Sequence record: PQ249397
DNA: 64,000 bases
Reading direction: 5' to 3' (one strand)
Source: Escherichia phage Pu-Krd-SF3
Positions 36,971 through 38,769 of this stretch are shown piece after piece. The stretch's first letter is position 1. Each line of letters begins with the position of its first letter. The notes beneath the pieces were generated by a model. That model was given only the letters and a program-made list of their open reading frames with translations. It was not told the origin of the DNA and made no database searches. Both the position numbers and the translations under genes were made by a program.

Positions 36971-37579
36971 ATGAAAATGCAAAGTGATTTCAATTCAATG
37001 TTTGAAGAGTTCCAAAGACAGGTTGATGTTCCAGACCAATTATTAAATGCTCTTAAACGTATGGCAGAAGGACGTAATTATTATTGGGGTTCTTCATATG
37101 AAACTGATGAAAGTCTTTCTGGAAGATTTTCCAGAGGTAAAAAGTCTTTAATACGTCCTGGAATACTTATTAACAGTATTGAATCAATTTATTCATTGAC
37201 ATGTGATTTTGATGTTGAATTTACTGATTTCATTTCTCCTGAATGGACAGTATGTTATTTAAACGACGATTTTGATTATCTCGGTGTTTATAGTTTAAGT
37301 GACGCATGGTTTAAACGTAATTTACAAAAGTCAAATTTATTCTATATTGATACTACAGTAAAATTTCAGGGAAAGAAATATTTCTTTACTCTTATAGTTG
37401 ATTCTGAAACGAAGCATGAAAATAAACGTATTCTTAGTAAAAGAAATATCTTGAATATTGTTGATGATCTTTTTGATAAATTAGTGGAAAATCCTAATTT
37501 TGAAAGTGATTTATTACTAGAAAAATTTGTTAAGGAATGTAGAGAATATGTCAAAACCATCACTATACCTTCCAAGTAA
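36971..37579 (+). CDS. Hypothetical protein, first member of C-terminal-motif family
   Basis: 202 aa ending ...EKFVKECREYVKTITIPSK. Confidence 0.45.
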   Translation: MKMQSDFNSMFEEFQRQVDVPDQLLNALKRMAEGRNYYWGSSYETDESLSGRFSRGKKSLIRPGILINSIESIYSLTCDFDVEFTDFISPEWTVCYLNDDFDYLGVYSLSDAWFKRNLQKSNLFYIDTTVKFQGKKYFFTLIVDSETKHENKRILSKRNILNIVDDLFDKLVENPNFESDLLLEKFVKECREYVKTITIPSK

Positions 37580-37940
37580 ACCGTTGAAGTATGAATTAAA
37601 GCGTCAGATAATTTCTACTGATGTATTAATAGGTCCTGTTATACTTATATCATTTGTAATTCTATTGATTATTGGAGGTGTTTTAGATGTTATGACTGAT
37701 ATTGATTCTGGCGAAATACTTGTGTTAATGCTAATTCTTCCATTAATAGTTCCACTTTTATTAGTACCTGTAAACTGGATAGGATATTGGTATCAAGGAA
37801 GACATTATCGTAAACGTGTACGTGATTGGAAAGCACAGTGTAAAAAGATTAAAAAGGAACACCAGCTTAAACTTGCTGAGTATGAATTTAATGAAATTAT
37901 GAAATTTGTTAAGGAATCACGATGCAAAAGCCAAAACTAA
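37548..37940 (+). CDS. Two-TM membrane protein, C-terminal-motif family
   Basis: ORF track 37527-37940; start at Met overlapping upstream gene; hydrophobic segments; ends ...KFVKESRCKSQN. Confidence 0.45.
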   Translation: MSKPSLYLPSKPLKYELKRQIISTDVLIGPVILISFVILLIIGGVLDVMTDIDSGEILVLMLILPLIVPLLLVPVNWIGYWYQGRHYRKRVRDWKAQCKKIKKEHQLKLAEYEFNEIMKFVKESRCKSQN

Positions 37941-38284
37941 ATAAAGTCAAATATTCGTTTTCTGAGTCATTTTTAATTTTTGCTGTGGCGTTGGCTGCAG
38001 CTCTTGCGGGTAGTCTTTTTGGATTGTTAATTGACTGTCTTATTTTAAACATTGACGGCACAGTAGATATAATAGAAGTTTGGAGTGAACTTCACTATAC
38101 CAAAATTATTTCATTGTTTTCATTTTTTGGTATTATATTATATTTTCATTATGATAATTTTAAAATAAATTGGCAAAGAAAAAAGGATTACAAAATACAA
38201 TTAAAAGAATATAATAGCTACATTTCTTATATTGAAAATGAAGCAATGAAAGAGTTTGTGAGTGATTGCAGGAAAATCAGATGA
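37922..38284 (+). CDS. Two-TM membrane protein, C-terminal-motif family
   Basis: 120 aa; hydrophobic segments; ends ...EFVSDCRKIR; start overlaps upstream gene. Confidence 0.45.
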   Translation: MQKPKLNKVKYSFSESFLIFAVALAAALAGSLFGLLIDCLILNIDGTVDIIEVWSELHYTKIISLFSFFGIILYFHYDNFKINWQRKKDYKIQLKEYNSYISYIENEAMKEFVSDCRKIR

Positions 38285-38769
38285 TTTTAAAAACTCGCTG
38301 GTATGACTTAGACGATGGGGATGATGGCATTTCAGTTGATAGAGTTGACTGGAATGGTTGTTCTGAAGATACAAAGAAACGATTAATTAGGGAGTTTAGA
38401 ATGGGATATCAAGCAGCTAAGCCATTTACTGTAACAGATGATAAATTCGTGTGTATTCAAAATGGTCGCGCTAAGTTAACAAATGCTGATTGGTTCACAG
38501 ATAAGAAGGTTCTTCTGTGGTATATCATTAGTCTTCCTATATCATCGTTAGTATTTTACTTTTTTATAAAAAATCCAATGGACAGAATAGGAGATTGGGT
38601 TCTTTTAACTATACTTGTTAATATTTTTACAGCAGCAGTATTATCAGGAACATGGCGTATGTTCATTGAAATGCCATGGCGTTTACGCAGACAGCAAAAG
38701 ATTTATGATGAAAAGAAATATGCTCAAAATTTAAATAGCTTTATCACTGAATGCAGGAAATTAAAATGA
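38281..38769 (+). CDS. Membrane protein, C-terminal-motif family
   Basis: ORF track 38266-38769; ATGA overlap start; TM segments in C-terminal half; ends ...FITECRKLK. Confidence 0.45.
   Translation: MILKTRWYDLDDGDDGISVDRVDWNGCSEDTKKRLIREFRMGYQAAKPFTVTDDKFVCIQNGRAKLTNADWFTDKKVLLWYIISLPISSLVFYFFIKNPMDRIGDWVLLTILVNIFTAAVLSGTWRMFIEMPWRLRRQQKIYDEKKYAQNLNSFITECRKLK

Follow-up and report, generated by a model that had tools for sequence, protein, structure and literature searches.

Why should four successive genes of a phage end in the same short peptide, and why should the DNA that joins them be repeated? The genes in question overlap one another between positions 36,971 and 38,769 of a 64,000-nucleotide (nt) stretch of Escherichia phage Pu-Krd-SF3 (sequence record PQ249397), hereafter the window. 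The window is that of a Tequatrovirus and, judged by profile matches and gene order, the four genes are orthologues of T4 e.5, e.4, e.3 and e.2. In our best explanation, which we consider probable as a whole, they belong to a fast-evolving, accessory set of early genes that stands in tandem beside e.6 in T4-like phages; the tail is a C-terminal motif at the level of the protein and the unifying feature of the set, and the constraint acts on the protein and not on the DNA alone, with the DNA doing double duty. Like many other early genes of T4, e.2 to e.6 have, to our knowledge, been left without an assigned function since the completion of the genome. The genes were already known as T4 e.2-e.5; what is added here is the conservation of the tail at the protein level far beyond this phage and a family tied to e.6.

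Positions 36300-39800 are 100% identical to Escherichia phage Pu-Krd-SF4, from whose annotated coding sequences the gene starts were mapped, and share ~96% DNA identity with T4, the T4 order e.6-e.5-e.4-e.3-e.2-nudE-e being kept. Lying between e.6 and nudE, all four genes match a PHROG profile over their full length (e.5, phrog_2607, E = 1e-108; e.4, phrog_2604, E = 1e-70; e.3, phrog_2330, E = 2e-58; e.2, phrog_2203, E = 1e-76). Their T4 counterparts (NP_049741 to NP_049738, hypothetical proteins) show the same order, overlaps and tails, with the difference that e.2 is intact in the window (162 residues) and cut to 102 residues in the T4 reference. Successive genes overlap by 32 nt (e.5/e.4), by 19 nt (e.4/e.3) and, at e.3/e.2 and e.2/nudE, by ATGA; the true start of e.4 is the ATG at 37548, rather than the TTG at 37527. 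A hairpin upstream of e.5 (36937-36950) marks the start of the translationally linked block that runs from e.5 to nudE.

The original prediction, made from the DNA letters alone, had described four overlapping tandem genes with a common C-terminal tail and repeated junction DNA, and this description is borne out with corrections of detail. The ends of e.3 (...KEFVSDCRKIR) and e.2 (...NSFITECRKLK) had been quoted correctly, while those of e.5 and e.4 had been cut short and really lie 8 and 3 residues further on (...EKFVKECREYVKTITIPSK and ...MKFVKESRCKSQN, respectively). Both junction repeats are real: the first, AAATTTGTTAAGGAAT, is an exact 16-mer that starts at 37523 and 37902, not at 37525 and 37912, and the second, TGCAGGAAA, starts at 38267 (given before as 38266) and, as had been stated, at 38752, inside two 30-nt stretches (38255-38284 and 38740-38769) with 77% identity to each other. 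Of 500 first-order Markov simulations of the 1.8-kb region, one produced a direct repeat of at least 16 nt, and TGCAGGAAA has no further copy elsewhere in the window on either strand. The pattern F[IVL]x[ED][CSI]R gives six matches in the six-frame open reading frames (ORFs) of the window, four of which are these genes, at most 11 residues from the stop. The simulation and the pattern counts rule out chance or A/T-rich composition as the source of the tail and the repeats.

The tail follows the pattern hydrophobic(-3)-x-x-[F/Y/W](0)-[I/V](+1)-x-x-C(+4)-R(+5), 0-15 residues from the stop. Residue -3 is hydrophobic in nearly all members, and the spacing i, i+3, i+4, i+7 fits one face of an amphipathic helix. 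If the family is taken as the proteins of the e.6-to-e interval that carry the motif within ~15 residues of the stop, e.5, e.3 and e.2 belong to it, and e.4 does so as a variant only, with S at +4 and Cys at +6. Across 10 loci (152,620 residues of six-frame ORFs), [FW][IV]xxCR occurs 27 times, one match falling in the overlap of two loci and so counting double; all but one of the 27, hence 26, lie on the coding strand, at most 15 residues from the stop and in the e.6-to-e interval, one of these between nudE and e. When Y was allowed and more loci were included, 42 matches were obtained versus 4.3 expected from composition, 41 of them at most 16 residues from the stop versus 0.9 expected; both counts include eight unrelated matches to the zinc site of thymidine kinase, without which 33 near-stop matches are left, the expectation of ~1 having been computed before their removal. 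No other real member came to light when T4 1-50 kb and 100-169 kb and the window were scanned. The thymidine kinase gene (tk, window 46011-46592) and its orthologues end in ...EIYVSLCRKHW..., where Y-V-S-L-C-R is the zinc site, 8-16 residues from the stop. T4 rIII (30785-31033, locus L028) ends in H-F-V-V-T-L-K, which fits a loose pattern only, probably by chance.

When the surroundings of e.6 and nudE were inspected genome by genome in other genera, the C-R motif was seen next to e.6 in 12 genera (Tequatro-, Mosig-, Gapriver-, Dhaka-, Jiaoda-, Karam-, Kanagawa-, Teguna-, Winkler-, Roskilde-, Biquarta- and Bragavirus), each genome having it on 1-6 genes in tandem; two more genera (Pseudotevenvirus and Slopekvirus) have a C-K variant (Table 1). 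Searches based on k-mers recovered relatives of e.4, e.3 and e.2 in Tequatrovirus only; blastn and tblastn added diverged Mosigvirus copies, and tblastn with RB69 ORF133c gave matches in Mosigvirus only. Across a dozen genera, the peptide defines a family with as many as six genes in tandem in one genome; the databases list its members e.5, e.4, e.3 and e.2 as separate families. We found no published description of the common tail, literature searches by gene name being unproductive.

How little else these proteins may share is clearest for e.5. Among 10 aligned e.5-like proteins from 9 genera, the only invariant columns are Met1, one Asn and the F, C and R of the motif. Once the tail is removed, similarity among the e.5-like bodies is transitive only, and for four of them no similarity to another body could be detected. 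An exhaustive phmmer search of 1.84 billion representatives found no T4 e.5 homologue outside Tequatrovirus and Mosigvirus, bar one spurious repetitive protein. The tail is also borne by other small soluble proteins that have no membrane segment (EnC15 0135, PEi26 ORF139 and an unannotated KPV15 ORF after nudE).

The proposal of a duplicated or shuffled module family is supported by profile similarity, homologous junctions and natural deletion and chimera variants. Comparison of single sequences gives a marginal z of 3-5 for e.4/e.3 and e.3/e.2, and ~0 when full-length e.5 is set against the others. At the profile level, e.3 matches the e.4 PHROG (phrog_2604) end to end (E = 0.004), and hhalign gives collinear alignments for e.4/e.3 (E = 5.9e-5, probability 65%), e.3/e.2 (E = 4.6e-4, probability 33%), e.3/RB69 ORF133c (E = 1.3e-5) and e.2/ORF133c (E = 2.9e-4); e.4 versus e.2 is not significant (E = 0.09). 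The architecture common to e.4, e.3, e.2 and ORF133c consists of a basic N-terminus, two hydrophobic helices with a short acidic loop between them, and a ~45-residue basic tail that ends in the motif. As had been claimed, the last three genes encode membrane proteins with two segments, which hydropathy makes clear for e.4 and e.2, the second segment of e.3 (IISLFSFFGIILYFHY) being shorter than theirs. In e.2, a soluble N-terminal part of ~75 residues accompanies the two predicted transmembrane helices; in e.5, hydropathy found no hydrophobic segment. The net charge of e.4 is +3 at the N-terminus, -3 in the loop and +9 at the C-terminus, a distribution that predicts a cytoplasmic location of both termini. 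We predict that e.4, e.3 and e.2 each cross the inner membrane with two helices and have N- and C-terminus in the cytoplasm; since e.5 is soluble, all four tails are therefore predicted to be cytoplasmic. Homology between the e.5/e.4 and e.4/e.3 junctions extends from the tail into the next gene, whose start and first four codons (M-x-K-P) it includes. The array may have grown by tandem duplication of units that included this junction (upstream tail, start codon and M-x-K-P), after which the bodies would have diverged quickly.

The gene next to the array is e.6. In nearly all e.6-containing phages examined, a motif-bearing gene directly follows e.6; RB43 has the motif on the second gene instead, and the Assk sequence is masked. 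The e.6 protein of the window ends in V-Q-E-Y-I-N-S-L-K (36910-36927), with the spacing of the tail motif and L-K in place of C-R, and every e.6 orthologue looked at, from Tequatrovirus to Aeromonas and Proteus phages (7 aligned), has the ending V-x-x-Y-I-x-x-L-K. Sequence searches of e.6 against Pfam, NCBIfam, PADLOC and PDB returned nothing significant. A PspA/IM30-like identity was rejected: hhalign of the e.6 alignment against E. coli PspA gave a probability of 0.2%, no PspA or Vipp1 chains were among the PDB matches of the e.6 profile, and Pfam PspA_IM30 was not matched.

What could such a tail do? We tentatively propose that it is a common docking or assembly helix, a role that we regard as possible rather than probable. 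Through the helix, these proteins would be gathered on one partner on the cytoplasmic side of the membrane; the leading candidate would be e.6, whose own C-terminus has the same spacing, the others being the family members themselves or a host protein. That e.6 specifically is the partner is more tentative still. The variable bodies would supply different specificities, and the cluster would be accessory. In its most complete form, which we hold to be doubtful, the F-I-x-x-C-R helix would be an address tag that docks changing small membrane and soluble early proteins onto a conserved receptor, with e.6 as best candidate, so that a modular complex would form on the cytoplasmic side of the inner membrane. 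The conserved Cys could possibly be shared between tails in a metal or redox site. Whatever its role, the common predicted cytoplasmic peptide offers a concrete handle on e.2-e.5, a target of six residues.

If this is true, T4-like phages would have, in the address tag, a second system for sorting by terminal peptide, beside the capsid targeting sequence. The latter, found on T4 internal proteins, is an N-terminal, cleaved address tag of the MKTYQEFIAE type for the prohead core. Like the tail, it is a short terminal peptide on otherwise unrelated proteins encoded in tandem in one region; unlike it, it is N-terminal and cleaved, whereas the tail is C-terminal, has a conserved Cys-Arg and is mostly found on early membrane proteins. 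It is the closest analogy for the way in which a common tag could act. Four window genes, at 34978, 39728, 40489 and 40811, start with MK[TM]Y-x-EF[LI]-x-E, typical of capsid targeting sequences, which together with the tails of the e genes makes the region rich in terminal-peptide families.

Several points weigh against this explanation. The docking or assembly role is proposed from sequence, and the AlphaFold models are poor: that of e.5, from a single sequence, has a predicted local distance difference test (pLDDT) score of 40.7, and that of e.2, from a 22-sequence alignment, in which the second transmembrane helix and the tail form one helix (103-161), is of low confidence (pLDDT 50.7). 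The likeness of the e.6 end to the tail (Y-I-x-x-L-K) was seen after the fact and fits a loose pattern only. The Cys is not universally required, as the e.4 lineage has S, I or V at +4. The homology of the e.4, e.3, e.2 and ORF133c bodies is weak (hhalign probability 33-81%, from shallow profiles with an effective number of sequences, Neff, of 1.0-1.8), the profile score is driven mostly by the tail and the M-x-K-P start, and e.5 shares with the membrane proteins its tail only, not its body. Finally, a DNA-level contribution to positions +2, +3 and +5 is possible, as tail codons and ribosome-binding site overlap in many members.

The original prediction had thought of superinfection exclusion or host modulation. 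It is unlikely, in our estimation, that e.4, e.3 and e.2 are exclusion or envelope-modifying proteins like Imm and Sp, with the tail as just a family signature. Several traits would suit such a role: the three are small early proteins with predicted membrane segments, their cluster in this T4-type phage is variable and probably dispensable, and within each membrane-protein family it is the periplasmic loops and transmembrane helices that vary most. On the other hand, it leaves unexplained both the tail on soluble proteins (e.5 and others) and the conserved linkage to e.6, and sequence searches of the four proteins returned nothing significant in Pfam (E <= 0.01), NCBIfam, PADLOC (E <= 1) or PDB, in a Pfam copy that did not contain PF26873 and PF26896, the precomputed accessions of e.4 and e.2. 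T4 Imm and Sp are likewise small, early and envelope-associated, with no detectable sequence relationship to these proteins. Pfam holds a family for T4 Imm; membership of an Imm-type superinfection immunity family was rejected, none of the four having a Pfam match at the above threshold, as was identity with known anti-phage defence proteins, given the PADLOC result.

Some database labels fare no better. The sulfurtransferase/rhodanese label that some NCBI records give to e.4 and e.3 was rejected, with no Pfam or NCBIfam match of that kind, and the names "sulfurtransferase" (e.4, e.3), "host specificity protein" (e.6), "DNA primase" (e.3), "phosphoserine phosphatase" and "terminase small subunit" (both e.5) have no model support. 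The present analysis corrects such labels (sulfurtransferase, host specificity protein, phosphoserine phosphatase).

There is little chance, we believe, that the tail is a by-product of a constraint on DNA, whereby the 3' end of each gene carries the Shine-Dalgarno sequence and start codon of the next and is translated as K-E or C-R-K. In favour of this idea, the window has the Shine-Dalgarno sequence 6-11 nt before each start, as AAGGA where e.5 and e.4 encode V-K-E and as AGGA where e.3 and e.2 encode C-R-K (TGC AGG AAA), and it is strongly implied that the purine-rich tail codons provide the ribosome-binding site of the overlapping next gene. In KPV15 gp161 the residues have changed to R-S while the DNA keeps AGGAG, and the junction RNA, which folds no better than its shuffles (z = +0.2 to +1.4), is unstructured, as open ribosome-binding sites should be. 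However, across the family the Shine-Dalgarno core starts at no fewer than three positions relative to the F codon, at an offset of 7 nt (K-E codons), of 15-18 nt (at the R codon or just after it) or of at least 28 nt, so that in several members it lies well downstream (10-50 nt past the motif in the outermost class); the distance from the end of the R codon to the next start ranges from -1 to +22 nt or more. Both Cys codons and six Arg codons are in use (TGC 22 and TGT 24; AGA 15, CGA 9, AGG 8, CGT 7, CGC 6 and CGG 1 among 46 [FWY][IV]xxCR matches, the eight of thymidine kinase included). F, encoded by TTT and TTC, and I/V, which together use seven codons, have no Shine-Dalgarno content, and the motif arises at none of the other overlapping junctions of the window or of the rest of T4. 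Because the position of the Shine-Dalgarno sequence varies and the motif is kept whichever gene follows (in RB69 e.3, ORF133c and e.2), the ribosome-binding site fails to explain the peptide.

The double use of the DNA also bears on details of the tails. In e.5, the 11 residues after the motif are encoded by DNA that also encodes the conserved e.4 N-terminus; in e.5-type proteins the 8-13 residues after the motif are poorly conserved, while the e.4 N-terminus in the other frame (LY[LM]PSKP) is conserved, which explains why the e.5 motif does not stand at the very end. Likewise, translation of e.3 starts within the R-C codons of e.4 (CGATGC), which fits the displaced Cys of the e.4 lineage. For nudE, the T4 annotation places the start at the ATG at 38751 (MQEIKMK...) and that of Pu-Krd-SF4 at 38766; since T2 has ATT at the position of 38751 and AGGA stands 7 nt before the ATG at 38766, the latter start, giving a shorter NudE of 146 residues, is most likely the right one.

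It is likewise improbable that the junction repeats are mainly recombination linkers for cassette swapping, as PeSL elements are, with the peptide incidental. An argument for such linkers comes from T2 and related phages, which match the window only through the e.3 stop: T2 e.3 has the e.2 ending CRKLK and runs directly into nudE, and e.2 would therefore have been lost precisely, by crossover within TGCAGGAAA. Deletion is the simpler reading for T2, as e.2 is at the same place in other genera. Moreover, in RB69, VR26 and MX01 the e.3 tail is directly followed by 6-10 additional, inserted genes, and recombination between minihomologies is known in T4, which deletes between 3-7 nt repeats in a UvsX-dependent manner (PMC8262927). 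PeSL cassettes of T4-type phages, which consist of an early promoter plus a stem-loop and are intergenic (PMC2839356, PMC4122927), offer a precedent, being, like the junctions, short gene-boundary repeats in variable regions with insertions, deletions and replacements. They are, however, intergenic promoter-terminator units, whereas the window junctions are coding, inside overlapping genes and conserved at the peptide level. The four junctions have no promoter-like or terminator-like site that we could find, nor, as said, a fold better than shuffled, and identity with PeSL cassettes was rejected. Further against the linker proposal, junction identity within one genome is just 9-16 nt, and between genera the DNA diverges while the peptide is kept. 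In phages UFV05/06, an in-frame e.4::e.2 chimera with loss of e.3 is joined at TCCTGT inside the first transmembrane helix, an unrelated 6-nt microhomology, so that any short repeat suffices. What is strongly implied is that the short junction repeats act as minihomology for cassette loss or fusion. The region would be a natural example of three constraints on one DNA stretch: a functional peptide, the ribosome-binding site of the next gene and recombination minihomology.

Finally, and very improbably, the tail could be a C-terminal degradation or turnover tag through which early proteins are cleared together by one protease or adaptor: its extreme C-terminal place, its portability across unrelated bodies and its basic ends (CRKLK, CRKIR, CRGKK), which loosely recall the basic C-terminal ClpX recognition signal of MuA, would suit such a tag, but the motif is not known from C-terminal degrons and a strictly conserved Cys is unexpected in a degron.

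Returning to the tail as the protein-level motif of an accessory gene set, the cluster is variable and probably dispensable in the laboratory, as suggested by three genomes: T4 itself, in which e.2 is frameshifted; T2, which is without e.2; and the deposited genome of mutant T4_583L, which is without e.7 to e.2. In the T4 reference, e.2 (NC_000866 67652-67960) has an A-run of A5 vs A6 near window 38570, and its remainder, including the FITECRKLK tail, is still readable in another frame, in the 161-nt "gap" before nudE. In Shigella phage vB_SsoM_113 (L013 2995-3969), the loss of one base in an A-run before the e.5 tail fuses e.5 and e.4 into a 324-residue ORF, and in KPV15 e.4 (L017 7793-8152) is split by a frameshift; both could be real variants or homopolymer sequencing errors.

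Table 1. Features of the array in the window and its surroundings, tail-bearing genes of other phages, and further gene families at the same locus (aa, amino acids; L-numbers denote the loci compared)
Feature	Position	Strand	Description
e.6 orthologue	36337..36930	+	197 aa, helical, no Cys; phrog_1203, E = 1e-87; directly upstream of array
Hairpin GGGGC-UUCG-GCCCU	36937..36950	+	In the 40-nt e.6/e.5 spacer, sole intergenic spacer of the block
e.5 orthologue	36971..37579	+	202 aa, soluble; F-V-K-E-C-R at 37526-37543
16-nt exact repeat, copy 1	37523..37538	+	Codes K-F-V-K-E; holds AAGGA upstream of e.4 start
e.4 orthologue	37548..37940	+	130 aa, two predicted transmembrane helices; variant tail F-V-K-E-S-R-C at 37905-37925
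16-nt exact repeat, copy 2	37902..37917	+	AAGGA 6 nt upstream of e.3 ATG
e.3 orthologue	37922..38284	+	120 aa, two hydrophobic segments; F-V-S-D-C-R at 38255-38272
e.3/e.2 junction, 30-nt pair member 1	38255..38284	+	TGCAGGAAA at 38267-38275; AGGA 7 nt before ATG; ATGA stop/start overlap
e.2 orthologue	38281..38769	+	162 aa, full length; F-I-T-E-C-R at 38740-38757
e.2/nudE junction, 30-nt pair member 2	38740..38769	+	TGCAGGAAA at 38752-38760; ATGA overlap; putative crossover site of T2 e.2 deletion
nudE (Nudix hydrolase)	38766..39206	+	Pfam NUDIX, E = 8e-14; last overlapping gene of the block
e	39243-39731		Downstream of nudE
RB69 (Mosigvirus)			Tail on e.5, e.4, e.3, ORF133c, e.2
VR26 (Gaprivervirus)			Tail on four genes: two C-R (gp139, e.2), e.4-like FIKEVR, e.3-like FIKECK
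MX01 (Dhakavirus)			Tail on three genes: two C-R, ORF130 FIKECK
KPV15 (Jiaodavirus)			Tail on five genes: three C-R, gp162 FIKEVR, gp160 WIKEMK
EnC15 (Karamvirus)			Tail on six genes: five C-R, one FIQGIR
PEi26 and Kosakonia 305 (Kanagawavirus)			Four genes each: three C-R, one e.4-type (FIRNVR or FIKNVR)
fHe-Yen9-01 (Tegunavirus)			Tail on three genes
X20 (Winklervirus)			Tail on three genes
FBB1 (Roskildevirus)			Two C-R genes plus I-R and L-R variants
Asfd_1 (Biquartavirus, Aeromonas)			Tail on one gene
phiP4-3 (Bragavirus, Proteus)			Y-I-x-x-C-R on four genes
RB43 (Pseudotevenvirus), KP13MC5-1 (Slopekvirus)			F-I-H-S-C-K variant
G-x-W-[V/I]-S-S-S-x-x-C family	L007 4274-4864; L015 4271-5539; L016 4293-5332; L018 3146-3672; L019 1967-3041; L025 8553-9576; L033 5332-5891		L007: RB69 ORF138c-136c
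...VYLEFPMEGW protein	L007 6528-6729 and L014; L015 7496-8182; L016 7481-8170; L019 5499-6185; L032 5738-6421		L007 and L014: RB69 ORF132c

Two further gene families were seen at this locus in other genera. The first, absent from the window, is a second tandem family in seven other genera, made up of small soluble proteins that end in G-x-W-[V/I]-S-S-S-x-x-C right before the stop, usually followed by TAAGGA; it stands in 2-5 copies between e.3 and e.2. The second, absent from the window and from T4, is a well-conserved protein of ~228 residues that ends in ...VYLEFPMEGW and is encoded directly upstream of e.2 in several other genera.

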